Part shown: positions 9,109 to 30,301 of the stretch, one piece after another
How positions within the stretch are numbered: the first letter of the stretch is position 1
Layout: the number at the start of each line of letters is the position of its first letter
IMG/VR virus record: IMGVR_UViG_3300028602_000002
Span: 1-64,000 of that record
Length of the DNA: 64,000 nucleotides
Origin: a virus
Lineage: Duplodnaviria; Caudoviricetes
Reading direction: 5' to 3' (one strand)
The notes under the pieces: model-generated
Databases searched by the model: none
Told to the model about the DNA's origin: nothing
The model's input: the letters and a program-made list of their open reading frames with translations, nothing else
Made by a program: the position numbers and the translations under genes

Positions 9109-9319
9109 TTGGTTATAATGCAGGTATCAGCTGCTATCCTCCAGTTTTGGTCTGTTCTGGAATATGAGCTAGTGATTCATACAGAAAAACAGACATCAAG
9201 ACATGAGGGCTTAAAACGGATTCCCCGCCGTGGTCTGGGCCAGCGTTGCTGTCACATCAGCCCGAGAAAAACTTACGCCGCAAGTTTAGGGGTTTAAAGC
9301 GGCAAACAACTGAGTCAAT
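9108..9319 (+). ncRNA. unidentified ~210-nt structured RNA with a possible pseudoknot
   Basis: nested stems GTCTGTT/AACAGAC, TATGAG/TTCATA and AAACTT/AAGTTT; loop GCCGC is complementary to downstream GCGGC. Confidence 0.55.
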
Positions 9320-13261: not shown

Positions 13262-13828
13262 GTGAATAAACTCCAATACCTAATCGTTTCTATTTTAGTT
13301 ATTACTTGTATATTATCGCTTTATACATTATTTGATATGCGACAAGAGATGGCTGAAATAGAAAAGGAACTAAAGATAACTGAAGCCCATAATGAAATCT
13401 ATCAAGATGGATTATATTCTACTCTTGAAAGAGTTCGTTATAAGGGTCAGTTGTTAGACGAGTATGAAGAAAACTATTTGTTTTATAAGCAACGAACAGC
13501 AGAATTAGAGGAATTATTTGAACAGATATTTATGGTTGAGGCTACAGCCTATGCACCAATTGATCCTCAAGCTGTTGAAGGTATGTGTTATTCAGGTGAT
13601 CCTTGGGTTACAGCCTCAGGTTTTCGCTCCAATCCAGATATTTCTATTGCAATGGACCCTAAGTTTCCATTTGGAAGTAGGGTTTTAGTAGAAGGATTTG
13701 GAGAGCGAATAATCCATGATAGAGGAGGTGCTATTACTGGTAATAAAATCGACATTATGATGTGGACTTTAGAGGAGGTGATGTCTTTCGGTAGACGATC
13801 TCTTAGAGTAATAGTACTTGAAGACTGA
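13262..13828 (+). CDS. membrane-anchored 3D-domain (MltA-like) cell-wall protein
   Basis: N-terminal TM, coiled coil, then ATAY, TASG, IAMDP, DRGGAI.GNKIDI. Confidence 0.9.
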   Translation: MNKLQYLIVSILVITCILSLYTLFDMRQEMAEIEKELKITEAHNEIYQDGLYSTLERVRYKGQLLDEYEENYLFYKQRTAELEELFEQIFMVEATAYAPIDPQAVEGMCYSGDPWVTASGFRSNPDISIAMDPKFPFGSRVLVEGFGERIIHDRGGAITGNKIDIMMWTLEEVMSFGRRSLRVIVLED

Positions 13829-13844
13829 TACTTTTTCTCCTATA

Positions 13845-14086
13845 GGATATAGTGGACAGGAAAAGTGCCGTTGGCGCCCGGGAATCTTGTTCCAAGGGAA
13901 GCGGATAAGCGGAGTGTCATTCGCTGGCAATTGGTGTAGGAGAGGGTCAGTTGCCCAAACTTGAATTAGTGAGAAATAGATTACTCTTATGATATGAAGG
14001 AGTAACTATTGGGATAGAATAAGTTGTAACATGGACAGCTTATTTTAAATAGTAAGTGGTGGGGCTTACTTTCACATAATATATAT
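13845..14086 (+). ncRNA. unidentified ~240-nt multibranch RNA
   Basis: closing helix GAAAAGTGCC/GGCTTACTTTC, internal stems GGCAATTG/CAGTTGCC, TTACTC/GAGTAA and AATAAGTTGT/ACAGCTTATT; terminator follows. Confidence 0.55.
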
Positions 14087-17941: not shown

Positions 17942-18604
17942 TTGGATATTAGAGATGCGAAGGTAAATTGGAATGATGACTGGGCTAATGACCCTCAGTT
18001 GGTTGTTTTAGTTGACAGAATCCCTAAGAGGGAAGAGTTAGTTTATGAAGTTGTTCACGTTAGTCCTCATACCTGCCTATATTTCAGCATCCATGAAGGT
18101 TATGTTTCCTACTTATACGAAGATGATAGGAATCGTAGAGGATATGGTGGTGATACTTTCTGGTTGAATGTTAAGGGTGTTGGTCGTATTGGTGTTAAAG
18201 GTCCTTGGTCTTCAAGAGCAAGTGTTGTTTATAAGCTAACTGGTATTCCTGTTGTTGATGTTGCTATGACTAATTCAAAAGAGAGTTATGAGCGGGGCTT
18301 CACGCTTCAGGCTGGCTGTATTACTTGGGGAGCCGCTATCCAAGCCGCTAAAATTGCTGATGTAGTATTAGAAGAGGATGTGAAGTATGATGAAATTACT
18401 TTTATTCCGAGAAAAGAATGTCCGCAATACATCCATCAGCTACCCCGTGCTCTACAGTTGTTAGCTTATTGTTATAAGGGTAATTATGAACATATGGAGA
18501 AGTCTTTAAGGGAGCGGACTGAGGAATACTTTAGTAAGTATTATGGGAATAAGTGGCAGGAGAAGTTGGATATTCAAATTCCACAGAAGGGAGAACTTCA
18601 CTAA
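17942..18604 (+). CDS. hypothetical phage protein
   Basis: GYGG.TF...KGPWSS motif, RBS GGAGG. Confidence 0.75.
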   Translation: MDIRDAKVNWNDDWANDPQLVVLVDRIPKREELVYEVVHVSPHTCLYFSIHEGYVSYLYEDDRNRRGYGGDTFWLNVKGVGRIGVKGPWSSRASVVYKLTGIPVVDVAMTNSKESYERGFTLQAGCITWGAAIQAAKIADVVLEEDVKYDEITFIPRKECPQYIHQLPRALQLLAYCYKGNYEHMEKSLRERTEEYFSKYYGNKWQEKLDIQIPQKGELH

Positions 18605-19197
18605 TGCTTGCTCCACAGGTTATATTAGATATTCATAACTCATCTAATAAGAGGTCTGATGGTAGTTCAAGATTTGTTTATCCTATATCTGATACTGTTG
18701 TTATGAAACTACCTATTAGTTTTGAATACTCTGGTGGTATAGAGCAATCAAATGAAGAATTACTTTTCTATCAGAACCGCTTACAGCCGCAGTTCTCTCA
18801 TTTAGTGGCTAATCTTATTGATTATGTTTTAATACCTTTACATCCGTTCATCAAATCACCTTGGTGTGAGTATAATACAGTTCCTATATTATTCCTTGAG
18901 AGAGTAGAGCCGCTACATGAGTTTATAACCGCTGATATTGGTTTATTCAACTTAATAGATATTCTAAAAACTTGGTATGGTAAGCAACTTGGTAATAAAT
19001 ACTATCAGGAGTTACTTCACTTCTCTCGGGAAACAGGTCTTAGTGATGTTATGAGTAATATTACTAACTGGGGTGTTAATGCCGCAGGAGATATTATATG
19101 TATAGATTGTGGTATTCTTCATAAACCTGGTAGCTTTGATAGCCGCTACATTCCTTCTCATTATTACTCTTCATCGTGTTCTCCTTTCTTCCCATAG
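18604..19197 (+). CDS. atypical protein-kinase-like protein
   Basis: GSSR.V, V.K.P, E-helix, D....NWG and DCG (DFG-like) motifs. Confidence 0.65.
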   Translation: MLAPQVILDIHNSSNKRSDGSSRFVYPISDTVVMKLPISFEYSGGIEQSNEELLFYQNRLQPQFSHLVANLIDYVLIPLHPFIKSPWCEYNTVPILFLERVEPLHEFITADIGLFNLIDILKTWYGKQLGNKYYQELLHFSRETGLSDVMSNITNWGVNAAGDIICIDCGILHKPGSFDSRYIPSHYYSSSCSPFFP

Positions 19198-19281
19198 AGT
19201 GTCCCTATGTCGGGTCAACAGCTCTAGTCCGATGTTACTTACGGTCCTCCTCTTGCTGAGGGATACTGGCTGAGGGTGAGT
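19198..19281 (+). ncRNA. candidate HDV-like self-cleaving ribozyme
   Basis: P1 AGTGTCC/GGATACT, P3 CTC/GAG, loop CTCTTGCT, GG, then CTGA, bulged P2 ACTTAC/GTGAGT. Confidence 0.35.
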
Positions 19282-19369
19282 TATTAGAGGGAAGATTCTA
19301 TGTAAGGGGATGAAATGTGGCGTAAAATTTTCCAGATAAGTAAAAATTTTCCATGTCGTATAGTTTTAA

Positions 19370-19690: not shown

Positions 19691-20062
19691 ACGCGAAAGC
19701 CCATTATGGAATGTTGTACCAACGCACACAAGTTGTGTTAATCCATGTTAACAATGTTACGCTTTGCGTATTACTGCCGCTTAAACTCTCTCTCTTGCTT
19801 AGCTTACACAGCTCATTTCACAGCTCGCACTAGCGGCTCTATAACAACATAGCTTGCAACCGCACTATTAAGGGCGGCGATGGCTTGTGAATTTTTCCAG
19901 AGCTGGAATTTACTGGGAATGACGGAGCTATATGGGTAAAAATTCGCAGATTTTACCCATGTCCCAACGATATGGGTAAAAATTACGCATATTATAAACT
20001 GGTAAAATTGGAATTGTATGGGAATGACGGCAGAATTTCCAGTTACTTACAGAAAAAACTTC

Positions 20063-20091
20063 TTGACAGCTCCGCGGTTTCATGGTATAAT
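20063..20091 (+). promoter_or_regulatory. sigmaA-type promoter
   Basis: TTGACA-17-TATAAT. Confidence 0.9.
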
Positions 20092-20122
20092 AGATATATA
20101 AAGGATGAGAGGGGCGGTCATA

Positions 20123-20656
20123 GTGTATCCTTGGAATACTTCTCTTGCTACATACTTGAATTTAAGTCGAGAGAGAGATGTTAGTAATACTGATAGGCAA
20201 GAATATAACTGCGGCGGATTCGCTTTAGAAACTTTCTCTTGGTATATTCCTTATGATGGTGATGAGTATTTTGAGTTGGTTGACTATTATGATGAGGATT
20301 TATCATTAGTTACAGAACATTGTGTTAATCATATGTTGAATGAGGTGCCAGGGTTAAGACTAATTAACGCAGTCAGTGATGCACGAAAAGATGAAAAAGT
20401 TGTGTTATTTAGAGTTGGACCTTTTGATTTTCACTATGTGAAATATGAAAATGGTGAGTATCTTCATAAGGTTGGTTCCACTCCTATCCTTCCTATGTCA
20501 GAAGAAGAGGTTTATAGTAGAGCTTGGTGTTATGGCAAATACAATGGTGAGATAGTAATCTTTGCACTGAAACCTGTAGATGGTAGATCTTTCCTGAAAA
20601 AAGTTCTTGACAACCTCGAGAATCTATGGTATAATATATATAGAAAGGTGAGGTGA
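20123..20656 (+). CDS. hypothetical protein with putative papain-like Cys/His motif
   Basis: YNCGGFAL, DFHYVK and HKVG; GTG start after RBS. Confidence 0.65.
   Translation: MYPWNTSLATYLNLSRERDVSNTDRQEYNCGGFALETFSWYIPYDGDEYFELVDYYDEDLSLVTEHCVNHMLNEVPGLRLINAVSDARKDEKVVLFRVGPFDFHYVKYENGEYLHKVGSTPILPMSEEEVYSRAWCYGKYNGEIVIFALKPVDGRSFLKKVLDNLENLWYNIYRKVR
20607..20635 (+). promoter_or_regulatory. sigmaA-type promoter upstream of the mini-tmRNA cassette
   Basis: TTGACA-17-TATAAT followed by ATATATAG. Confidence 0.9.
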
Positions 20657-20663
20657 GCATGTT

Positions 20664-20828
20664 ATGAAAGCGGAAATTTTGAAGGTGATAGCGGCTGAAA
20701 TGAATGAGGCTGAGCGTAAAGCAGATGCGGCGGTTGATAAAGGTGAGATGGATGTTCATCGTTTTCATGCTGGAGCGTTTCATGCTCTTCAGAATTTATA
20801 TACCAGAGTGGTAAGAATACCGTTATAA
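20664..20828 (+). CDS. 54-aa hypothetical protein
   Basis: RBS GAGGTG; ends 2 nt before the mini-tmRNA. Confidence 0.65.
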   Translation: MKAEILKVIAAEMNEAERKADAAVDKGEMDVHRFHAGAFHALQNLYTRVVRIPL

Positions 20829-20830
20829 AT

Positions 20831-20911
20831 GGGGCTGACGGGTGTCGTCAGGTGGAAAATCTCCTACGGAGCCTCACCTGAACCTGGGTTCAACTCCCAG
20901 CAGCTCCACCA
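20831..20911 (+). ncRNA. minimal tmRNA-like RNA (tRNA-like domain only)
   Basis: GGGGCTG/CAGCTCC-A-CCA acceptor with G3:U70, stemless D-loop, CAGGTG/CACCTG helix, T-arm CTGGG-TTCAACT-CCCAG; no anticodon arm or tag ORF. Confidence 0.75.
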
Positions 20912-20918
20912 GATATTA

Positions 20919-21031
20919 GGGGAGAGGGAAAAAGGGATTATATTACCGCCAGCAAACCAGCATCCCTGAGCCGTACGGCGACAGCCAATGGGTAATTCCA
21001 GAGGAGCACTGTTAGGCTGGCTAATCTCCCC
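20919..21031 (+). ncRNA. unidentified 113-nt structured RNA
   Basis: GGGGAGA/TCTCCCC closing stem, GGGAT/ATCCC, GCCG/CGGC, CAGCC/GGCTG; possible loop pairing ATTACC/GGTAAT. Confidence 0.6.
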
Positions 21032-21048
21032 ATTTAAGGAGGATTAAT

Positions 21049-21324
21049 ATGGATTATAAAGATTGTCGTGATTGTTATTATTTACTTTCTATTGATTGTG
21101 TTCCTCATTGTGTTTTAGCAGATAAAGTTATCAGTGAAGTGGAGCGTTGTCCTGAAACTAAAGAGGAGCCTAATGAGATTAAGTTTGAGATTTATTTCAG
21201 TGACTTGAACTATGAAGCTCAGAAGCAAATGCTTGAAACGTTTGGTCAGGATTTTGTTAAAGAGGGGAATTATGATGCTTTTCCTCTGGTTGAATACATT
21301 CAATATAAAAATCCTGATTTGTAA
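21049..21324 (+). CDS. hypothetical protein
   Basis: RBS AGGAGG; Cys-rich N-terminus. Confidence 0.7.
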   Translation: MDYKDCRDCYYLLSIDCVPHCVLADKVISEVERCPETKEEPNEIKFEIYFSDLNYEAQKQMLETFGQDFVKEGNYDAFPLVEYIQYKNPDL

Positions 21325-21345
21325 TTAAATCCCAGAAAATACTTC

Positions 21346-21374
21346 TTGACAACCCCTGAAATTCGTGATATAAT
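21346..21374 (+). promoter_or_regulatory. sigmaA-type promoter
   Basis: TTGACA-17-TATAAT. Confidence 0.9.
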
Positions 21375-21408
21375 AAATATAGAAAAAAGAAAAGGAGGCT
21401 TTACCCCA

Positions 21409-21696
21409 ATGGCTAAGAAAGAAAAGAAAGTTGAACTGAGGGACGTGCTGAGGAAGGAAATCGCTGTGCTTCTGATGGAAGCCAAGGGTCTCACTGAGAT
21501 CGGTAGGACTAAGGAAGGTCTGGTTGTAACTGAAGGCGAACAAGACCTGGTGATCAGGGTTATCCAGAAGAAAGACAAAGTGGAAAAGAAAGACATCGTG
21601 GAAGTCATCACTCTGGATGAAGCCGAAGCCGAAGGTGAAGATGAAGGCGAAACTGAAGATGAAGCCGAGGGCGATTCCGAGGATGAAGCTCAGTAG
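21409..21696 (+). CDS. unknown small protein with acidic tail (paralogue 1 of 3)
   Basis: GRTKEGL..VIRVIQKK motif; own promoter and terminator. Confidence 0.85.
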   Translation: MAKKEKKVELRDVLRKEIAVLLMEAKGLTEIGRTKEGLVVTEGEQDLVIRVIQKKDKVEKKDIVEVITLDEAEAEGEDEGETEDEAEGDSEDEAQ

Positions 21697-21702
21697 AGTG
21701 AG

Positions 21703-21741
21703 AAAGAGGGCGGATGAAGACGTGCCGCCTTCTTTTTCTTT
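21703..21741 (+). terminator. intrinsic terminator
   Basis: AGAGGGCGG/CCGCCTTCT hairpin plus T tract. Confidence 0.75.
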
Positions 21742-21890
21742 CCTGTTGTTTCCATAATTTTACAGCTCTTCCACAGCTCGCCATATATTCCAAAATATGG
21801 AAGCGGGCTGTTCGTCATTCCCTATTCTTTTTTCTTTTGGAATTGTGTGGAAATGACGGACGCCTGGAAAATAGTGGTAAAAAATACTTC

Positions 21891-21919
21891 TTGACAAAAC
21901 CACGGATTTTTGATATAAT
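21891..21919 (+). promoter_or_regulatory. sigmaA-type promoter
   Basis: TTGACA-17-TATAAT. Confidence 0.9.
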
Positions 21920-21948
21920 ATATATAATGAAAGAAAGGGGAGGATAAC

Positions 21949-22218
21949 ATGGCTGGTGGCTTCTGGGATAGTGAAAAGGTATTGAGGGACGTTCCCAAAG
22001 TTGGAACCAAGTCGACATTCTACCGTTTTAAGGAAGTGAAGAAAGGTAACAAGAAGTATATTGACGTGCGGGAACACTTCATTAAGGCGGATGGAACTGA
22101 GCAATATACTTCCAAAGGAACTGCCATTCCTGTTGATGGTTTTGAAGACTTCCTGATTGCAGTCAGAGATATTGGTGAATTCCTGAAAAGTGGCGAGATG
22201 CCTAAGGATTTGGGGTAG
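21949..22218 (+). CDS. PC4/YdbC-like single-stranded nucleic-acid-binding protein
   Basis: KYIDVREHF....G....TSKGTAIP motif. Confidence 0.8.
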   Translation: MAGGFWDSEKVLRDVPKVGTKSTFYRFKEVKKGNKKYIDVREHFIKADGTEQYTSKGTAIPVDGFEDFLIAVRDIGEFLKSGEMPKDLG

Positions 22219-22372
22219 CCATCCGCTACTGTGAAGGGGAGAAGGTTAAGACAACTACTTTGGAAGATCTATCCAAACAAGTGGAGTCATATTTGGCGAT
22301 GAAGCTTCCCAGTTGTCTTTCTCCTCAGGATATAATTGAGATTGCAAACTTGATTGATTATCGTGAAAGAAT

Positions 22373-22499
22373 TGGCGGACGCCAGGGGTAAGGCGTGCCT
22401 GAGTGGGAGTGGTTACCGGCCGTAGACCACAGGTAGGGCGAGCAGAGTGTTAAAACCCTAAAGGATAGCTGTTCAAGTAGGTTCGAAACCTACCCGCCA
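22373..22499 (+). ncRNA. tRNA-like RNA with an expanded central domain
   Basis: TGGCGG/CCGCCA stem, D-like hairpin ACGCC/GGCGT, T-arm GTAGG-TTCGAAA-CCTAC, two extra stems, no anticodon loop. Confidence 0.65.
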
Positions 22500-22504
22500 G
22501 AAGA

Positions 22505-22533
22505 AAGGAGAGCGTAAATGCTCTCCTTTTTTT
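22505..22533 (+). terminator. intrinsic terminator
   Basis: AAGGAGAGC/GCTCTCCTT plus T tract. Confidence 0.85.
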
Positions 22534-22754
22534 ATATATTTTTACAGCTCGCACAGCTTACCAAATAAGGTAATATATGGAATCCTGTTTTGAATTTGTT
22601 TGTGAAACTGGTAAATATGGAATCTTTTGGAAATGACGGAGTTTTCCATTTTATGGTAGAAAAGGAAAACTCTAACTGTTCCGCCATTGACATTCATTTC
22701 CAAATCTGGGATAAAAAACTTTTTTGAAATCTCCTAATTATTTCCAAAAAAGAC

Positions 22755-22783
22755 TTGCAATCCCAACTGATTTGTGGTATAAT
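22755..22783 (+). promoter_or_regulatory. sigmaA-type promoter
   Basis: TTGCAA-17-TATAAT with extended TG. Confidence 0.8.
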
Positions 22784-22816
22784 TATTATAGTAAGAAAAA
22801 GGAGGCGTTACCCCTA

Positions 22817-23098
22817 ATGGTAGAAAAAGGTAAGGAAAAAAAAGTAACTGCAAGGGAAACCCTGAGAACTGTTATCGCTGGATTGCTGATGGATGAATTT
22901 GGTTTGGAAAAGATTGGCAGGACTAAAGAGGGTTTGCTGGTAAGAACTGGTGATGAGGATCTGATTGTCAGGGTTATCCTGAAAAAGAATAAGGTGGAAG
23001 CAAAAGACATTGTGGAAACCATTGCCAGGAAAGATGCGGCAGTAGTGGAAGAAGAAGTAGAAGTGGAAGAAGATGGAGAAGAGGAAGATGCTGGTTGA
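22817..23098 (+). CDS. unknown small protein with acidic tail (paralogue 2 of 3)
   Basis: GRTKEGL..IVRVILKK motif; RBS AAGGAGG. Confidence 0.85.
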   Translation: MVEKGKEKKVTARETLRTVIAGLLMDEFGLEKIGRTKEGLLVRTGDEDLIVRVILKKNKVEAKDIVETIARKDAAVVEEEVEVEEDGEEEDAG

Positions 23099-23127
23099 GA
23101 GGGGAGAAATCCCCTCTCCTTTTTTTT
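23097..23127 (+). terminator. intrinsic terminator
   Basis: GAGAGGGGA/TCCCCTCTC plus T8. Confidence 0.85.
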
Positions 23128-23420
23128 ACCATGTCTTCCAAATTTTTCTAAGTTTTACAGCTCGCACCATCTTTTCCAAAATTTTCCTGTGTTTCCACAG
23201 CTCACCAGCTCTTACAGCTCGCACCTTATTTGGTAAAATTTGGGAGTGGTTTAAATTGGAAATGACGGCTGACACAGCTCGCAGGGGCGTTAAAAAAAGG
23301 GAAAACATGTAAGAAATTGGGAATGACGGAAATCCATAAATAGAATTATTTGGTAATGACGGAGGATTTCTGGAAGAATTTGGAAATTCCGTCATTGTAA
23401 ATCATTTCCATTTCTATTGT

Positions 23421-23449
23421 AAAAAAAAAGAGGATTACTCCTCTTTTTT
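23421..23449. terminator. terminator at the convergence of + and - transcription
   Basis: A9-GAGGA...TCCTC-T6 hairpin. Confidence 0.7.
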
Positions 23450-23587
23450 GTAACATGTGGTATAAAGTGCTTCTGCTTCTGGAGTGCGACATTTATCACA
23501 ATATTCTCCATTATCACAAGGACGATTACCAGTCCATGGATCTGGTTGACAGAAGTTTTCATTTAACATTTTTTCCCATTGTGTCAT
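23435..23587 (-). CDS. 50-aa Cys-containing hypothetical protein
   Basis: RBS GGAGG and promoter TTGACT-17-TATAAT at 23642-23614. Confidence 0.65.
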   Translation of the reverse strand: MTQWEKMLNENFCQPDPWTGNRPCDNGEYCDKCRTPEAEALYTTCYKKEE

Positions 23588-23951
23588 ATAATTTCCCTCC
23601 TCTCACTATAACCATTATATCACTTTTAGACTGGAAAGTCAATATCAAAATTGGAAAATGTTGAACTGTATTTTATTCCCTGAAATGGAAATAGTTGGGA
23701 ATGACGGAAGTCAAAAAAAAAGGAAAGTCTTGGAAGACTTTCCATTTATATGAAACTGGAGGTGTGTTTTACATGAAATCCCACATCTTGGCATTAATTT
23801 CCGCAATCACATCTTTTAGGTGTTCTTTACAGAAACCTGCATTTCTGGGAGGAAGTTCCATGCCACATCTTTTACAGTAATCTTTTGGTCTTAGTAAATT
23901 ATAAATTCTCAGGATAAATCTGGGAAACATGGAATCATCCTTTCTAAAATA

Positions 23952-24026
23952 TGGTGTGTCTGGGAGGAGTTGAACCTCCATAACACGGTTTAAAAGACCG
24001 GTATTTTACCATTAAATTACAGACCC
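23952..24026 (-). tRNA. second tRNA-Lys(TTT), slightly degenerate
   Basis: minus-strand cloverleaf, loop CTTTTAA, CCA; G2:A71 mismatch. Confidence 0.85.
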
Positions 24027-24034
24027 GTATGTAT

Positions 24035-24170
24035 CAGCATGGAGTCCAGTACTTTGGGAATAATTCCCAAGCTGGCGTGGCTTGGTGTCACAGTCGGGGA
24101 GTAGAAAGGACACCTACCAGTTTTTTACTTCCTTCACATTCCCCTAATTCCGTGAAGGAAAACCATGCTG
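24035..24170 (-). ncRNA. unidentified four-way-junction RNA
   Basis: CAGCATGG/CCATGCTG closing stem plus TTCCTTCAC/GTGAAGGAA, GGTGTC/GACACC and TTGGGAA/TTCCCAA; strand inferred from neighbouring genes. Confidence 0.6.
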
Positions 24171-24216
24171 TATCAGGAAAGGATAGGGAGGGCAGGGACA
24201 CCCTCCCTGTCAGGAA

Positions 24217-24456
24217 TCACTTGTAAGCGACGTAGCGGAAACTTCCATCTTCTTGTAGGGCGTATTCTCCAACTGCATCTTCGGGCTCATTTTTCTTTTT
24301 GATAACACGGATGATAAAGGTATCTTCATCTACTTCATAGCGTAGCCCTTCTTTGTGGCGAACGATTTTATCTCCATCTACTCCACGATTAATCAGGTCA
24401 GCAGCGATTTGCTCGTAAACCTCATCCCGCACTTCCACCTTTTTCTCTTTTGCCAT
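24217..24456 (-). CDS. unknown small protein (paralogue 3 of 3)
   Basis: MAKEKKVEVRD...RHKEGL...IIRVIKKK. Confidence 0.85.
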   Translation of the reverse strand: MAKEKKVEVRDEVYEQIAADLINRGVDGDKIVRHKEGLRYEVDEDTFIIRVIKKKNEPEDAVGEYALQEDGSFRYVAYK

Positions 24457-24503
24457 AAAATTGTCACACTCCTTTTTTATTTTTTCTCTCTCTTTCTAAA
24501 ACC

Positions 24504-24626
24504 ATTATATCATGGTTTCACTGGTTTGTCAAGAACTTTTTTTTGGAATCTTTTCCCATCCCTCCCGTTCCCATTGTTTCCCTCACCTTCTAAATACATT
24601 ATATCACGAAACCGCTGGAATTGCAA
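24504..24626 (-). promoter_or_regulatory. two tandem sigmaA-type promoters
   Basis: TTGACA-17-TATAAT (24532-24504) and TTGCAA-17-TATAAT (24626-24598). Confidence 0.85.
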
Positions 24627-24665
24627 TACCAAAAATGGAAATTTTTATGAGAAAAAAGAAAAAAA

Positions 24666-25043
24666 ATAATTCAGAAAATTTTGATTTTTACAGCTCACAC
24701 CAAATTTACCATATATTGGGTTGGAATTTACTGGAAATCCCAAGGAACTTTTTGGAAATGGCGGAAACACAGCTCGCAAAATTGACAGCTCACACCAAAT
24801 TTGGAAATAACTGGAAATGGAATTTACTGGAAATCCCAGGAAGAAAATGGAAAATCAGAATAGTCTGAAAATTCTGGATTGGAATTAATTGGAAATGACG
24901 GAAGTTTTAAAATTCTGACAATTCTGACAAATTCCGTCATCGTATAACAATGACATTTCTGGAAAAAACTGGAAATCCTGTAACTGGAAATGTTTGGAAA
25001 TGACGGAATTCTATGAAAAAGAAATCTGAATATTCTGACTATT
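24666..25043. promoter_or_regulatory. cluster of CodY-box-like sites
   Basis: 15-mers with 2-3 mismatches to AATTTTCWGAAAATT at 24666, 24859, 24909 and 25029. Confidence 0.5.
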
Positions 25044-25049
25044 TAAAAT

Positions 25050-25081
25050 AAAAAAAGGGAAATATTTCTATTTCCCTTTTT
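25050..25081 (-). terminator. intrinsic terminator
   Basis: AGGGAAATA/TATTTCCCT hairpin flanked by A and T tracts. Confidence 0.7.
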
Positions 25082-25174
25082 CAAACCAATTGTAAATTAA
25101 TTCCATTATGGAAACAAGAATTACGAAACCAGCACCATAACACCATAATAAAATTATTCCTTCAATAATCATTA

Positions 25175-25468
25175 TTAATTATCCTCCTTTCTGGTATAAT
25201 AGAATCTGTAGTAAATGATAAGAATTATTAGAATTAAAATTATTGTAAATGACATTGAAACTATAATGATAAGAATTATCCCGTAACCATTAACTGCCAT
25301 GTAAATTCCATATATTGACTTAAATCCATTTCCTACCAGAATCATGAAGAATGTGGTTAAATTCAATCCTTTTACATTTTTGGTAATTATTACCTGTGTA
25401 ATTTGTGGTAGCGCCGCGAATGTTAAAAGGATACCTCCTAATAATTGGAAAACTTCTGGTGTTGTCAT
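25175..25468 (-). CDS. PQ-loop/SemiSWEET-family small transporter
   Basis: GGILL..AALPQI...K.V.GL, three TM segments. Confidence 0.8.
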   Translation of the reverse strand: MTTPEVFQLLGGILLTFAALPQITQVIITKNVKGLNLTTFFMILVGNGFKSIYGIYMAVNGYGIILIIIVSMSFTIILILIILIIYYRFYYTRKEDN

Positions 25469-25521
25469 TTGATAAACCCTCTTAATTGATAATTATTATT
25501 AAAGGAGAAGAAGGGGCAGTA

Positions 25522-26184
25522 TTACCTGCCCCTGTTTACTTTGCGCCATGGATGGGCGACTAATTCGTTGCGGATAATTCTTTTCTTTTGACGTAGTACC
25601 TCCTGTAATATTCTTGCTTCAATTTCTGCATCCTCTAGTGCCGTGTGTGTTTCCATAAACTGGTAATTACCTGTAATGTATCTGTAAGCAATTTCTGCAC
25701 TGGTGCGGATATTTCCTTTTTCTGTCAACCAATTTTGTTCTATTGCAATTCTCTTAAATCTTTTTTGCTGGAAAAGACTGTCACAGGAAGCGTTCCATAA
25801 ATCAAAGTATTCATAAGGTTTTTCCAGAAAATTCCTGCCAGAATTTGTCTGCTCTAATGTTTGCTTCATTGCCGACATATCAAACTGTAAGTTATAGGCA
25901 GTAATGGTAGTAACTTCCATTTTTTCCAGTATTTCGTTAAATTCCTTTTTTGCTTGTGCGAATGTTACCACAGGAAGCCCGCTGTAAAATACTGGAATTT
26001 TTTCGCCATAGTAGGCAATTTTTTCAATCCCAGGAATTTCCAGTATTTCCTTTATTCTCCATCGCCACATTGCCAGTGGTCTGCCAGTTTTTTCCACTAT
26101 AACCATTCCCAGGTCATATACCCATTTTTTGGAAACCCCGATTGTTTCAGTATCAAATACGCAGTAAACTTTTTTCTTTATCAT
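25522..26184 (-). CDS. DEDDh 3'-5' exonuclease (DnaQ-like)
   Basis: FDTET, AYN..FD and HTALEDA motifs. Confidence 0.9.
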   Translation of the reverse strand: MIKKKVYCVFDTETIGVSKKWVYDLGMVIVEKTGRPLAMWRWRIKEILEIPGIEKIAYYGEKIPVFYSGLPVVTFAQAKKEFNEILEKMEVTTITAYNLQFDMSAMKQTLEQTNSGRNFLEKPYEYFDLWNASCDSLFQQKRFKRIAIEQNWLTEKGNIRTSAEIAYRYITGNYQFMETHTALEDAEIEARILQEVLRQKKRIIRNELVAHPWRKVNRGR

Positions 26185-26233
26185 TTAATAACATCTCCTT
26201 ATTAATAATGATTATTGGAAAGGATAGCAGGAA

Positions 26234-26764
26234 TTAAATCCTGCCATCCTTTTCCAGTTTTTCCAGTAATTGGAAAATCTCGTTATGCTGTTTAATTCCT
26301 ATTCCCTGATAATGTTTATTATATCCCCTTCTGAAGCAAACTGCAATTCCTTCTTGTTTGCTCCATGCTGTTAAGTGAGAAACATTATCGTCTACCAATA
26401 CCCTGCCAGGTCCTGCCAATAACCATTTGTCAAAAGTATATATTCTTTTGTATCGTGGAATGTAAGGGAAAAAAGTATCTAACCAATAATTTTTCTCGTC
26501 TATGCTGGAAGGTCTGGGCATCGGCTGACTAAGAATTCTTACATCATAACCATTATTAACTAACCTTTTGAGTACTGAATTCGCCCGCTGAATAATTGTT
26601 AAATCTTGGAAAAAACCTTCTGTATTCAATTTGGCAGTTATTTCCATTTGCTCTTGCTCATTTTTTGGCTCATATTCTTTAATACGCCCGCTGTAAATTC
26701 CTGTAAGTTTTTTGTGCATTTCAGCGATAGTATTATCCATATCATAAAATACTAACTTTTTCAT
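26234..26764 (-). CDS. 5'(3')-deoxyribonucleotidase (NT5C, HAD family)
   Basis: YDMDNT, K..WL and LVDD motifs. Confidence 0.85.
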   Translation of the reverse strand: MKKLVFYDMDNTIAEMHKKLTGIYSGRIKEYEPKNEQEQMEITAKLNTEGFFQDLTIIQRANSVLKRLVNNGYDVRILSQPMPRPSSIDEKNYWLDTFFPYIPRYKRIYTFDKWLLAGPGRVLVDDNVSHLTAWSKQEGIAVCFRRGYNKHYQGIGIKQHNEIFQLLEKLEKDGRI

Positions 26765-26936
26765 AATAATTATTCTCCTTTCAAGGGACTGCCAGTATTG
26801 ACAGCCCCTCATTTGATAATGTTTCTTACATGAAAAGCTTTGCTACATGGAAAGCAAGCACGACCCAACCAATAAAGACAACAAATCCAGCGATAGCGAT
26901 CATTACTTGACACCTCCTGTCAGTTGATAATCTTTA

Positions 26937-27536
26937 TTACTTCTGTTTTTTGTAGCGAATGTGTACGCACTCCTCATTTTTTCCTGCCCTAGTGCGAATC
27001 TCAAAATATAGTCCTTGCCAGATATAATCAAAAGCATCTTCTTTATCAATTAATAATAATTCTCCGTTATCTACATCCAGTAAATGTGTTGCTTGTGCGA
27101 AGGGGTCTGCCTGATAAGTGCTAGTACCTTCAAATAAGAAGTATTGGATAATTTCTCTCCAATCTTCTTTATTGTCGGCTAATAAATGTAATGGTATAGT
27201 TCTTTTTGTTACTTGATAATATTTCTCCATTGCGTCAAGTACTGGGTGTATATCCAGCATTTCCCTTTTTGCTAATATTTCCCAATTCCGTACTGGTACC
27301 ATATTAACAATAGAAGCCCTGTTGCTTTTAGTAGACTTTATTTGTAAACGATAATTATTATTTACTGTTACGTCTACTTTGCTTTTAGTAGTTGCTCCGA
27401 AGTGATAAAGATTATTAATTGCGATTGTTTCAACGTGTCCTTTTAAATTCTTTACTTGAAAAGAATTTCCTGCTTTTTCCAGCATTTCTATTATACGCAA
27501 TTCTGCATCCTTTCCTTTATTTCCCAAAATAAACAC
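26937..27536 (-). CDS. PD-(D/E)XK-like nuclease, restriction-endonuclease-like
   Basis: G...E N-terminal helix and KVD...LQIKS motif. Confidence 0.55.
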   Translation of the reverse strand: MFILGNKGKDAELRIIEMLEKAGNSFQVKNLKGHVETIAINNLYHFGATTKSKVDVTVNNNYRLQIKSTKSNRASIVNMVPVRNWEILAKREMLDIHPVLDAMEKYYQVTKRTIPLHLLADNKEDWREIIQYFLFEGTSTYQADPFAQATHLLDVDNGELLLIDKEDAFDYIWQGLYFEIRTRAGKNEECVHIRYKKQK

Positions 27537-27560
27537 CTCCAGTTATTTGTTGATAATGGT

Positions 27561-27652
27561 TCTTACTTGCCAGCTTTTCCCTTATGCCCTGCCGGTCCTC
27601 GTGGTGGTACGATCGGGACTCGTTCGCGCCGGGAAAAACTCTCTTATTAAGT
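27561..27652 (-). ncRNA. GC-rich structured leader RNA
   Basis: AGCTTTTCCC/GGGAAAAACT closing stem and GTCC.TCGT/ACGA.GGAC inner stem, directly after a promoter. Confidence 0.45.
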
Positions 27653-27661
27653 TCTATAATA

Positions 27662-27690
27662 ATACTATCACAGTATAACAGAAGTGTCAA
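27662..27690 (-). promoter_or_regulatory. sigmaA-type promoter
   Basis: TTGACA-17-TAGTAT with extended TG. Confidence 0.75.
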
Positions 27691-27729
27691 TGTCAAAAAA
27701 TGGAAATGAGGCGGGTTTTTAAAAGTTCT

Positions 27730-27764
27730 AATCTTCTGAATTTTCTGACAATATAGGGGGGGGG
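27730..27764. other. tandem CodY-like site and G9 tract at the strand switch (candidate genome terminus/packaging site)
   Basis: AATCTTCTGAATTTTCTGACAATA then GGGGGGGGG, between divergent promoters. Confidence 0.4.
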
Positions 27765-27869
27765 TAGTTTAGTGTAAAAAATTTCCAGAATTGTCATTTT
27801 TTGGGTATCCCACCAACTCCAAACTCCCATGAGTAGTTTTGTCCTCCGAGCCATGTGTCTGCACATCCC

Positions 27870-27898
27870 TTGACAAAACAGGATTTATGTGGTATAAT
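27870..27898 (+). promoter_or_regulatory. sigmaA-type promoter (last consensus one seen in the window)
   Basis: TTGACA-17-TATAAT followed by ATATATAG. Confidence 0.9.
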
Positions 27899-28509
27899 AT
27901 ATATAGGAATGACGGGAATAGAAAACATAGCTAATAGGAAGGGGTGATAAAGTGGCTTTTATAAAAGAAATAATATTTGTATTAGGCTACCTAACAGGAA
28001 TACTACTATTAGACTACTACGCCTACGAGATTAACACAGTCAGTTTCTTTTTTGGGATGGTTACAATGTATATATTACTAAGACTGGTGAGTATAACATA
28101 TGAAGAGAGGGGAAGGAGAGAATGAGCAGCAAGATTGCGGACTATCGCATAATGGTAGAGGGCTTTGAAGCGGCTATTAAGAATTATGAAAAAGCGATAA
28201 TTGACGCAACTAGAGGGCTAGAATACTATAAGCGGCTAATAGAGAAGCATCAAGAAGAGGAAACAGAAGGGGAGTAGTTACACTATTCCCCTATCTAGTA
28301 TGAGACAGGATAAGAAAGGAGGGGAAGGATGTTGAGTAATAAAAGCGAACTTCTTGGTATAATAAGACTAATATTAGGAATGGAATTAATAGAGTATGAG
28401 GATAAAATTTTCTTAGCCTATGATAATAAGAGAAGAAGTGAAGAGAAGATAAAGATGTTGCGGGAAGCTCTCTTCTTAGTTGAAACAAGCGAGTAAAGGA
28501 GGATTTATA

Positions 28510-29101: not shown

Positions 29102-30301
29102 TTGATGATAGGTCAAAATACAGCTGAGATTATGAAATTATCACAGCAACTAGATTTTTCTATTGCAGACACAAAAGAGAGAATATCTCTGTTGTATGAT
29201 TTGCTAATGGAATATAATAAAGCGACAAAAGAGTGGTTACCAAATCTCTTTTTAACTGAGTACTTTGAGAAGTACTATAACCCGCACATAAAGCAAGCTC
29301 AACCCCAATCCCATAAGTTACCAGTTTGTTATAACTTAAATTATATGGCGGGATATATACTTTTTAATAAGGATCAGACTAATGTGAATGTGATAAGAGA
29401 AAAAACTCAAAAGTATAGAGATACTAAACATGTATCTCTTGAACAGACAATGGAGGAACAAGGAGAAGAATCAATTAAACCAGCGGAAACATCTTATTTG
29501 CGGGCTAGACCAACTGTCACAGAACAAGATGTAAAGGATATTCCTGAACTTCAAGGATATAGTGATTATATAGAAGCGGTTAAATTGCTTATTGATAAGG
29601 AAGAAAATGAAAGAGAGAAATATAAATTAAGGCAAATATTAAAAGAAGTGCGACAAGATCAGTTGGCCGCTAAACTTGCATTGCAAAAACCTATTAATTT
29701 TACTCGCCTTACTCCTACATATTCCCTTATAAATTACTATGAGGATACTGGATATGGAATGGACAATTATGAGTATAAGCAGGTTTCTTTTAATAAGATA
29801 GAATTATCAGAGCCATCTCATGTATCTAATCTATTGAAATTCTATTCTGATTTGCGGCATCATAGTTATGATGATACTCAATCTGATATTAGATATATTT
29901 TAGATACCCTTGATGATTTAATAGAAGAAGCTCCGCTTAATGAACATTTTCGCTATATCTTAATCAGAAGAATAGATGGAGAAACTTATGAGAACATTGC
30001 TTTTGAATTGCATAAAGAAATGGGTCTCAGATTATCTGCTGGATATGTCTCCTCAATCTTTTTGAATAGAATACCAGATATAATATCTAAGTATTACTTA
30101 GATAGTTTCGAAGAATGGTATTTCACCTTTAAAACAAAAGGAGACTATAAAACCTGTACTAAGTGTAAGAAGAATTTTTTAAGAAGTGATAAGTATTTTA
30201 GAAAAGATAAGAAGAGTCGAGATGGATTAAGCACTGTTTGTAAAGAGTGTAGGAAGCAACAGGATGTTGAAGCGGCTAAGAAGAGAGCTAATAGAAAATA
30301 G
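29102..30301 (+). CDS. putative DNA-binding regulator (HTH plus C-terminal zinc ribbon)
   Basis: ILIRRIDGETYENIA HTH-like segment and CTKC...CKEC. Confidence 0.6.
   Translation: MMIGQNTAEIMKLSQQLDFSIADTKERISLLYDLLMEYNKATKEWLPNLFLTEYFEKYYNPHIKQAQPQSHKLPVCYNLNYMAGYILFNKDQTNVNVIREKTQKYRDTKHVSLEQTMEEQGEESIKPAETSYLRARPTVTEQDVKDIPELQGYSDYIEAVKLLIDKEENEREKYKLRQILKEVRQDQLAAKLALQKPINFTRLTPTYSLINYYEDTGYGMDNYEYKQVSFNKIELSEPSHVSNLLKFYSDLRHHSYDDTQSDIRYILDTLDDLIEEAPLNEHFRYILIRRIDGETYENIAFELHKEMGLRLSAGYVSSIFLNRIPDIISKYYLDSFEEWYFTFKTKGDYKTCTKCKKNFLRSDKYFRKDKKSRDGLSTVCKECRKQQDVEAAKKRANRK

Follow-up and report, generated by a model that had tools for sequence, protein, structure and literature searches.

In this work, we focused on a stretch of about 8 kb (19.8-27.9 kb) in the genome of an uncultured soda-lake phage, within a window formed by bases 1-64,000 of a 115,422-bp IMG/VR virus record of 32.5 % GC. 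On sequence evidence, this stretch is best read as an RNA-rich early takeover region. The kind is known from SPO1, from T5 and from the PeSL modules of T4-type phages; new would be the RNA payloads, the exchange of payloads and a conserved grammar of the spacers. We further consider it rather probable that the stretch is the densest and most plastic part of a gene set that depends on host RNA polymerase and is presumably expressed early.

Judged by its large terminase, which shares 54 % identity with the terminase of Geobacillus virus E3 and ~45 % with those of large Enterococcus siphoviruses, the phage is a relative of Firmicutes-type siphoviruses. Nine short related contigs (L014-L021 and L142; 65-85 % identical) were used for comparison. 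They were obtained solely from JGI metagenomes and contigs of metagenome-assembled genomes (MAGs), and every relative fetched originates from soda-lake sediment metagenomes.

Promoters, terminators and transcription units

A perfect promoter was defined as TTGACA-N14-TGn-TATAAT (12/12 matches, 17-bp spacer, extended -10 of the sigmaA/sigma70 type), and densities were computed on sites with at least 10/12 matches plus the TG extension. Genome-wide, 22 perfect sites were found, against 0.007 expected from base composition and a mean of 0.01 in 100 Markov-1 simulations. Six of them lie in the stretch (20063+, 20607+, 21346+, 21891+, 24532- and 27870+), together with near-perfect sites with TG at 22755+ (10/12), 23642- (11/12), 24626- and 27690-, and a weaker site at 22687+. 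An earlier note on this DNA had claimed ten near-consensus sigmaA promoters in 8 kb, and the 10-11 sites counted here agree with it.

The 11 promoters of the stretch amount to 1.36 per kb, i.e. 3.5-4 times the density of the two other promoter-bearing arms, 1-19.8 kb (7 promoters, 0.35 per kb) and 87.5-115.4 kb (11 promoters, 0.39 per kb, all on the minus strand). None was found in the 59.6 kb between 27.9 and 87.5 kb. The promoter-bearing arms diverge at 154(-)/259(+) and together span ~56 kb. The same promoter family thus serves ~48 kb beyond the stretch, where tRNAs, ROOL, tmRNA and replication genes (RecJ, DnaB, ligase) are encoded, and the earlier description of the stretch as the early region of this phage had to be given up. 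Likewise, the earlier statement that no such promoter follows position 27898 holds for the next 59.6 kb but not for the minus-strand arm, where the family reappears at 87.5-113.5 kb.

Beyond the hexamers, the promoters share an upstream A-tract, CTTGACAA, TGr-TATAAT and ATATATAG-AAAG, and 31 promoters of the relatives follow the same extended consensus. Between the tandem promoters P24626 and P24532, an 18-codon micro-open reading frame (MGTGGMGKDSKKKFLTNQ; 24577-24521, minus strand) with a good ribosome-binding site was noticed; it overlaps the -35 hexamer of P24532.

Terminators were confirmed by a pattern scan and by folding. Seven intrinsic terminators were retained (Table 1), in agreement with the strong terminators that had been described at cassette ends, and one of them is bidirectional and coincides with the point near 23435 at which transcription had been predicted to converge. 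Together with the promoters, they delimit short operons of small genes with strong promoters and ribosome-binding sites, which is a layout of the SPO1 type.

Table 1. Features of the 19.8-27.9 kb stretch (window positions; ORF, open reading frame)
Feature	Position	Strand	Content
Strand-biased boxes	19816..25008	+	box A, bipartite TGGAAT-N5-TGGRAATGACGG, 9 copies; box B, TTTACAGCTCGCA
Palindrome ATGGGTAAAA..TTTTACCCAT	19932-19960		between boxes B and A in some spacers
Promoter P1 (12/12, TG)	20063..20091	+	drives 183-aa ORF 20105-20656
Promoter P2 (12/12)	20607..20635	+	inside 3' end of 183-aa ORF; unit holds 54-aa ORF 20664-20828, mini-tmRNA, RNA at 20915 and 91-aa ORF
Mini-tmRNA, tRNA-like domain only	20831..20911	+	Rfam RF00023
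Structured RNA, no assigned class	20915..21035	+	folding and conservation in two relatives
91-aa Cys-rich protein	21049..21324	+	homologues in L014, L016, L018
Cassette P3	21346..21741	+	promoter 21346-21374; paralogue A 21409-21696 (95 aa, acidic tail); terminator 21700-21741
Cassette P4	21891..22533	+	promoter 21891-21919; PC4-like 21949-22218; tRNA-like RNA 22373-22499; 15-bp terminator 22500-22533
Cassette P5	22755..23118	+	promoter 22755-22783 (10/12, TG); paralogue B 22817-23098 (93 aa); terminator 23097-23118
Non-coding spacer	23119..23427		dense in copies of box A (GGRAATGACGG) and box B (ACAGCTCGCA)
Bidirectional terminator	23428..23448		fold z -5.3 on one strand, -3.8 on the other
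Cassette P6	23435..23642	-	promoter 23642-23614 (11/12, TG); 50-aa Cys-rich ORF 23587-23435
Cassette P7/P8	23722..24626	-	tandem promoters 24626-24598 and 24532-24504; paralogue C 24456-24217; hairpin 24205-24178; RNA 24170-24030; tRNA-Lys 24026-23952; 70-aa ORF (end 23769); terminator 23743-23722
Non-coding spacer	24640..25050		TGGAAAT-type boxes; copies of boxes A and B
Operon P9	25051..27690	-	promoter 27690-27662; GC-rich leader 27655-27540; nuclease of restriction-endonuclease fold (predicted) 27536-26937; NT5C deoxynucleotidase 26812-26234; DEDD exonuclease 26184-25522; hairpin 25533-25512; PQ-loop membrane protein 25468-25175; 34-aa ORF; terminator 25082-25051
Promoter P10, last consensus site	27870..27898	+	starts long rightward block: small ORFs, 399-aa gene 29102-30301
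Seven intrinsic terminators	21700-21741, 22500-22533, 23097-23118	+	
	23428-23448		bidirectional
	23722-23743, 25051-25082, 25512-25533	-	

RNA and protein payloads

Six RNA segments of the stretch stand out as GC islands in the 32.5 % GC genome; those other than the mini-tmRNA and a tRNA-Lys have 55-68 % GC and contain no convincing ORF. Two were assigned to Rfam families, the mini-tmRNA and a tRNA-Lys, and no Rfam match was obtained for the others. Among the RNA payloads listed by the earlier note, these two are solid and the RNA at 20915 is supported.

The mini-tmRNA, which consists of the tRNA-like domain (TLD) only, scored 55 bits against RF00023 (gathering score 47). It aligned to model positions 1-374 with 310 internal positions collapsed to an 18-nt insert, and it has G3:U70, helix 2, a T-arm and an encoded CCA, with no message domain or tag ORF. 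G3:U70 is present in 7/7 clade members, and helix 2 and the T-arm covary among the phage and six relatives. In these six relatives, the mini-tmRNA stands directly behind a promoter; it is followed by tRNAs in L014, L015, L018, L019 and L020, with an extra structured RNA in between in L015, and by a tRNA-like RNA in L016. Other unnamed structured RNAs flank it at L016 2618-2716, L015 139-221 and L019 470-654, two of them with T-arm-like hairpins. The whole phage genome encodes 25 tRNAs, ROOL and a full-length tmRNA (103744-104092, minus strand; short tag AEPKLKAA), of which the mini-tmRNA is not a recent copy, and no SmpB gene was found in it.

A pattern scan of IMG/VR (loci L022-L141) returned TLD-only-like matches of ~73-97 nt. 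Among the 120 matches listed, 69 were non-tRNA with tmRNA-type 5' and 3' ends; in a second pass, 8 of the 70 non-tRNA matches listed lay within 300 nt of a tRNA. With 69 such matches among those listed, TLD-only tmRNAs look common in phages.

The tRNA-Lys(UUU) was called by ARAGORN (ttt) and by Rfam (59.9 bits) and folds into a canonical cloverleaf. This minus-strand copy shares 87.5 % identity with the plus-strand tRNA-Lys found behind the mini-tmRNA in L018. Since it is complete with an encoded CCA, it is more likely a replacement than a decoy.

The RNA at 20915 begins 4 nt past the CCA of the mini-tmRNA and has a fold z of -2.2. Its core is kept at ~70-80 % identity in L018 (891-1032) and L019 (2285-2402, minus strand), with a few compensatory pairs, three sequences being too few for a covariation test. 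It stands after tRNA-Lys in L018 and in a promoter-driven non-coding stretch in L019. As the downstream content differs in each context, this RNA is more likely a free RNA than a leader. In L019 (2250-2720, minus strand), a consensus promoter is followed by >400 nt of GC-rich, ORF-less sequence that ends with the 20915 core, an arrangement that suggests a pure RNA cassette. An exact-pattern search of IMG/VR with the conserved core gave no match.

The 22373 RNA has a canonical T-arm and a closing stem without an anticodon arm. Its fold z of -1.3 is not better than shuffles, and no cloverleaf with anticodon was called in it by ARAGORN or Rfam. A covariance model built on this single sequence found as sole possible relative the tRNA-like RNA after the L016 mini-tmRNA (14.5 bits), and also gave a spurious match on a mini-tmRNA; L018 holds the PC4 cassette without this RNA. 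An intron-bearing tRNA was rejected, as ARAGORN gives only a mispaired model at relaxed threshold; the UACUUCG-type handle expected of a Y RNA was not seen in it by eye. A possible ORF of 43-53 aa (22231-22391) lies between the PC4-like gene and the 22373 RNA, with its stop codon within the RNA; it is absent from L018.

The RNA at 24030-24170 has a fold z of -3.5 and ends 4 nt before tRNA-Lys; a single-sequence covariance model found no homologue in the relatives. The leader of operon P9 is 65 % GC (fold z -2.0). Its sequence is not conserved in L142, the one syntenic relative, which has a different GC-rich segment behind its promoter plus an extra small ORF. Further GC-rich islands (55-63 % GC) outside annotated tRNAs were seen on the left arm, at 9180-9307, 13823-13969, 18273-18367 and 19171-19302, and may be additional structured RNAs.

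These RNAs invite two other explanations. As the earlier note had it, the stretch might work against host defences mainly through small RNA decoys; these would bait host nucleases or RNA-binding immune sensors. Phage investment in non-coding RNA is indeed heavy, as a full tmRNA and ROOL are also present, the 22373 RNA has the T-arm and closing stem of a tRNA without its anticodon arm, and a TLD-only RNA was shown to inhibit tmRNA in work cited in PMC4131195. Moreover, tRNA-cutting defences are established, as are phage countermeasures, tRNAs included (PMC11464382, PMC10264068, PMC11555353). No target was identified for such decoys, however; the tRNA-Lys would serve as a substitute rather than as bait, and half of the payloads are proteins, a nuclease/nucleotide-metabolism operon among them. 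As three of the RNAs are also unverified, with the 22373 RNA absent from the closest relative L018, we regard this explanation as unlikely.

Alternatively, the stretch could be an ordinary hyperplastic region of small orphan genes, in which the GC-rich segments other than the mini-tmRNA and the tRNA-Lys are decaying tRNA or tmRNA fragments or structure in untranslated regions (UTRs), lacking a function of their own. Three candidates are lineage-specific and none has an Rfam family, the folds of three candidates score a modest z (-1.3 to -2.2), and payloads come and go among relatives. Against decay stand the high GC content of segments devoid of any convincing ORF, the fold z of the 24030 RNA, and the 20915 core, which persists in three otherwise different contexts, once as a stand-alone promoter-driven RNA. 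We find this explanation improbable, and retain the RNA-rich takeover region as our reading.

Turning to proteins, the leftward operon P9 opens with a 199-aa protein whose model (pLDDT 87) gave Z-scores of 9.3 to HinP1I, 8.9 to HhaI and 7.6 to MspI, with 156-173 residues aligned. Matches ranked next (Z at most 4.8) fall mostly on other nucleases that share this broad fold, and nothing of unrelated fold exceeds Z 3.6. Foldseek gave a probability of 0.98 to MspI, and the Atlas search a TM of 0.77 to RE_HpaII clusters. As modelled, the protein has a restriction-endonuclease fold of the HinP1I/MspI/HhaI/HpaII group. Its alignment has invariant D, E and K columns, candidates for catalytic PD-(D/E)XK residues. 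Genome-wide, the GC-only 4-mer palindromes CGCG, GGCC, GCGC and CCGG are about three-fold under-represented (observed/expected 0.30-0.35), and GATC, CTAG and GTAC about two-fold. The scarcity of CCGG and GCGC (0.32-0.35), being common to all four GC-only palindromes, is uninformative on the site specificity of this enzyme. Of the CCGG sites that remain, about half fall within RNA genes or candidate RNAs. The same operon encodes an NT5C deoxynucleotidase (67.5 bits), a DEDD exonuclease matching phrog_192 and a PQ-loop membrane protein; that the latter exports nucleosides is speculation.

Elsewhere in the stretch, the PC4-like single-stranded DNA-binding protein is borderline (Pfam PC4, E 2e-5, 24.3 bits against a cut-off of 25). 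The paralogue family A/B/C (79-95 aa) has 18 unnamed homologues, and paralogues A and B have a common 5'UTR (repeat family D20). The 183-aa ORF has homologues in L014 and L017 and no Pfam family above cut-off.

Behind the last promoter, the 399-aa gene matches phrog_5767, annotated as 'sigma factor' (E 1.9e-50), and its homologues bear the same name in Brevibacillus phage Sundance and in VRE9 phages of Enterococcus. Pfam detected no sigma domain in this protein, and no region 2 match in the genome. If real, this putative sigma factor would account for the consensus promoters stopping at 27.9 kb.

Rearranged payloads and conserved spacer boxes

The contigs L014-L021 and L142 draw on a common pool of payloads, placed in different orders and strands. 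The shuffled payloads are the 183-aa, 91-aa and PC4-like proteins, paralogues A/B/C, the mini-tmRNA and tRNAs. Writing P for promoter, T for terminator and miniTm for the mini-tmRNA, the order is P-miniTm-tRNAGlu-tRNALys-RNA20915 / P-paralogue A-T / P-PC4-T / P-91aa in L018, and P-91aa-PC4-paralogue / P / P-miniTm-tRNAGlu-tRNALys / P-paralogue B / P-183aa in L014. L020 has an additional tRNA-Tyr and L019 carries a tRNA-Asp. The 91-aa gene has its own promoter in L018 and none in this phage, and the tRNA-Lys of the window lies on the opposite strand relative to the copy of the relatives. Some units are kept whole: cassette P3 has an orthologue at L018:1025-1541 (74 % identity), and the leftward operon P9 forms a syntenic block in L142 (68 % identity). 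In this comparison for cassette exchange among relatives, which the earlier note had suggested, the same units were found in other orders and strands. Homology blocks end near promoters and spacers; as the relatives are only 65-85 % identical, exact breakpoints cannot be fixed.

Five of the relatives (L018-L021 and L142) had been binned into MAGs, of which four are labelled Gammaproteobacteria, Opitutia, Bacteroidales and Mollicutes; for these phage contigs, the labels are almost certainly binning errors. Nothing nearly identical to the region turned up among 50,697 phage records, and no relatives were found in IMG/VR by single-protein searches with the exonuclease and with the 199-aa nuclease or by a profile search with the paralogue family. 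The terminase search of IMG/VR returned two short contigs only, neither of which reaches the early region.

The spacers had been described as repeat-rich, which the repeat analysis confirmed. Families D2-D8 cover two boxes, A and B, and D1, D5, D7 and D9 correspond to composite terminator/promoter motifs that flank variable genes. In the nine soda-lake contigs, the common form of box A is TGGAAT-N5-TGGAAATGACGG and that of box B is TTTACAGCTCGCA. Twelve of the 14 genomic copies of AATGACGG and 7/7 copies of ACAGCTCG lie within 19.8-27.9 kb, nearly all on the plus strand. Box B sits after the T-tract of terminators, and the order terminator, box B, palindrome, box A, promoter recurs in L014, L016, L018 and L020. 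The start of box A lies 42-43 bp upstream of the -35 at P20063, P21891 and two L018 promoters, and 45 bp upstream at P9282 of L014; the sequence between box A and the promoter differs between non-orthologous spacers. Given this arrangement, a phage regulator that acts on these promoters probably binds bipartite box A.

The boxes could also mean that the stretch is, or adjoins, a true terminal redundancy or first-entering DNA, with the boxes as injection-pause, nuclease-protection, packaging or origin signals. Boxes A and B do keep one orientation whatever the direction of the neighbouring gene. The physical ends are moreover left unplaced: what the record calls a 'direct terminal repeat' is an exact overlap of 30 bp (1-30 and 115393-115422), i.e. 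a signature of assembly circularisation and no biological repeat. The first-step-transfer DNA of T5 is similar in content (bioRxiv 10.1101/866236; 10.64898/2026.04.02.716235), and the SPO1 takeover module is situated in the terminal redundancy of that phage (PMC6873191). Nevertheless, GC skew tracks the coding strand without a separate or origin-like switch in 19.8-27.9 kb, the boxes are scattered over five spacers rather than forming one block, and the fixed distance of box A from the -35 in several spacers suggests a link to promoters, so that we hold this alternative to be distinctly unlikely. Boxes A and B were rejected as late promoters, being nearly missing between 27.9 and 87.5 kb. When the intergenic gaps of this block were searched by k-mers for a promoter motif in common, ribosome-binding sites alone were recovered.

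Proposed function and comparison with known systems

Under the reading of an RNA-rich takeover region, the host sigmaA holoenzyme would recognise a promoter module of 55-60 bp (A-tract, CTTGACAA, TGnTATAAT, ATATATAG), and each module would yield a short transcript that ends at an intrinsic terminator and carries a small protein, an RNA or both. As the RNAs abut tRNA-shaped elements (the mini-tmRNA, the tRNA-Lys or their own T-arm), RNase P and 3'-end processing could free them. The promoter, terminator and spacer modules would act as portable homology through which recombination moves, inverts, adds and deletes payloads. Once released, the TLD-only tmRNA may titrate SmpB or alanyl-tRNA synthetase and so dampen host trans-translation, and the extra tRNA-Lys, with tRNA-Glu in relatives, may sustain translation if host tRNAs are cut. 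The leftward operon would degrade host DNA by endo- and exonuclease and convert deoxynucleoside monophosphates (dNMPs) to nucleosides, as in T5. Finally, the last promoter would express the putative phage sigma factor, and transcription would be handed over to the promoter-less 27.9-87.5 kb block.

Several points weigh against this reading. The label 'early' derives from the promoter type, and as these promoters also precede RecJ, DnaB and ligase they may stand for the non-structural genes as a whole and not for the earliest class. Three of the RNA candidates claimed by the earlier note (22373, 24030 and the leader) are without any comparative support. In the scans made, no payload protein hit a family known from takeover or anti-defence, and the model of the paralogue family (pLDDT 76) has no fold match in the PDB. 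The sigma assignment stems from a PHROG label and from names given by other annotators, and recombination at the modules is deduced from rearranged synteny, not from breakpoints in near-identical genomes. Box A, lastly, stays on the plus strand beside minus-strand promoters, which a DNA-level signal of fixed polarity would fit at least as well as an operator.

A bolder version can be offered only tentatively, and we are inclined to doubt it. In it, the soda-lake clade would shuffle RNA and protein genes through these modules, with the 20915 family, the 22373 RNA (and its possible relative in L016) and the 24030 RNA as new classes of phage non-coding RNA. Freed by tRNA-processing enzymes, these RNAs would act on host translation quality control or on RNA-targeting immunity, and a new phage regulator would time their expression with the TGGAAT-N5-TGGAAATGACGG box as its operator.

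Early takeover regions hold phage genes that are at once the most inventive and the least understood, and existing knowledge concerns nearly exclusively small proteins. In the present stretch, structured RNAs too are carried in this high-expression cassette format, and they appear to be exchanged like gene cassettes. The stretch provides a set of candidates for questions of ribosome rescue and tRNA-directed defence (the TLD-only tmRNA, the tRNA-Lys and as many as four RNAs without a name), as well as short, very strong promoter and terminator parts of the Firmicutes sigmaA type, and from the conserved upstream box one may learn how promoters of this kind are shut down.

With regard to the mini-tmRNA, a phage precedent exists in mycobacteriophage DS6A (PMC4131195, PMC11915505), the only phage named in the literature found on TLD-only phage tmRNA; the inhibition of tmRNA mentioned above, as cited in PMC4131195 (also PMC11915505), concerns a similar molecule. 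Both RNAs are phage-encoded, ~80 nt long, and have a tmRNA-type acceptor and T-arm, G3:U70 and CCA without a tag frame. Unlike that of DS6A, the present RNA belongs to a phage of another host phylum, appears to share a transcript, started at a consensus promoter, with tRNAs or other RNAs, and occurs beside a full-length phage tmRNA in a genome where no SmpB gene was found. This precedent and the operon resembling host-DNA degradation both fit the host takeover proposed by the earlier note, which is upheld to that extent.

The SPO1 takeover module, in work of 1998 as recounted in PMC6873191, consists of small genes with strong sigmaA-type promoters. On that account, both phages have short operons of small genes, with strong sigmaA-type promoters and ribosome-binding sites, within ~8-12 kb of a large Firmicutes phage, and for both it is expected that a phage sigma factor later assumes control. 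The earlier comparison with SPO1 therefore stands for the layout, i.e. the cluster of small genes, strong promoters and short operons, but not for homology to SPO1 gp37-gp60: the scans of payload proteins against Pfam and PHROGs detected no SPO1-related family, and no sequence or fold relation to any SPO1 product was found in the scans made. In addition, SPO1 has proteins as payloads; in the present stretch, two payloads at least and six at most are RNAs.

During the pre-early stage of T5, host DNA is degraded, Dmp turns dNMPs into nucleosides and the products exit the cell (bioRxiv 10.64898/2026.04.02.716235); its first-step-transfer DNA combines strong promoters, the deoxynucleotidase and degradation genes with non-coding repeats and palindromes (bioRxiv 10.1101/866236; 10.64898/2026.04.02.716235). 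The present stretch likewise has strong host-type promoters, a 5'-deoxynucleotidase, genes of the host-DNA-degradation type, small unknown genes and conserved blocks of non-coding repeats and palindromes. The nuclease here differs, being of predicted type II restriction-enzyme fold and not an A1 metallophosphatase, NT5C is likened to Dmp by function alone, and T5 keeps its tRNAs elsewhere.

In the tRNA cluster of T4, the stable RNAs C and D are embedded in the tRNA unit and released by the tRNA-processing machinery. Non-tRNA stable RNAs within a tRNA transcription unit would be a trait common to both, but the units of the present phage are dispersed and intermingled with protein genes, each having a promoter and a terminator to itself. 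The closest counterpart of the exchange itself is found in the PeSL of T4-type phages, where terminator/promoter modules bound shuffled units (PMC2839356, PMC4122927). As with PeSL, composite terminator/promoter modules stand between small variable genes, and whole units appear to be inserted, deleted or replaced. The two systems belong to different host clades and phage types, the modules described here are longer, with boxes A and B and the palindrome, and RNA genes are among the payloads that are shuffled.

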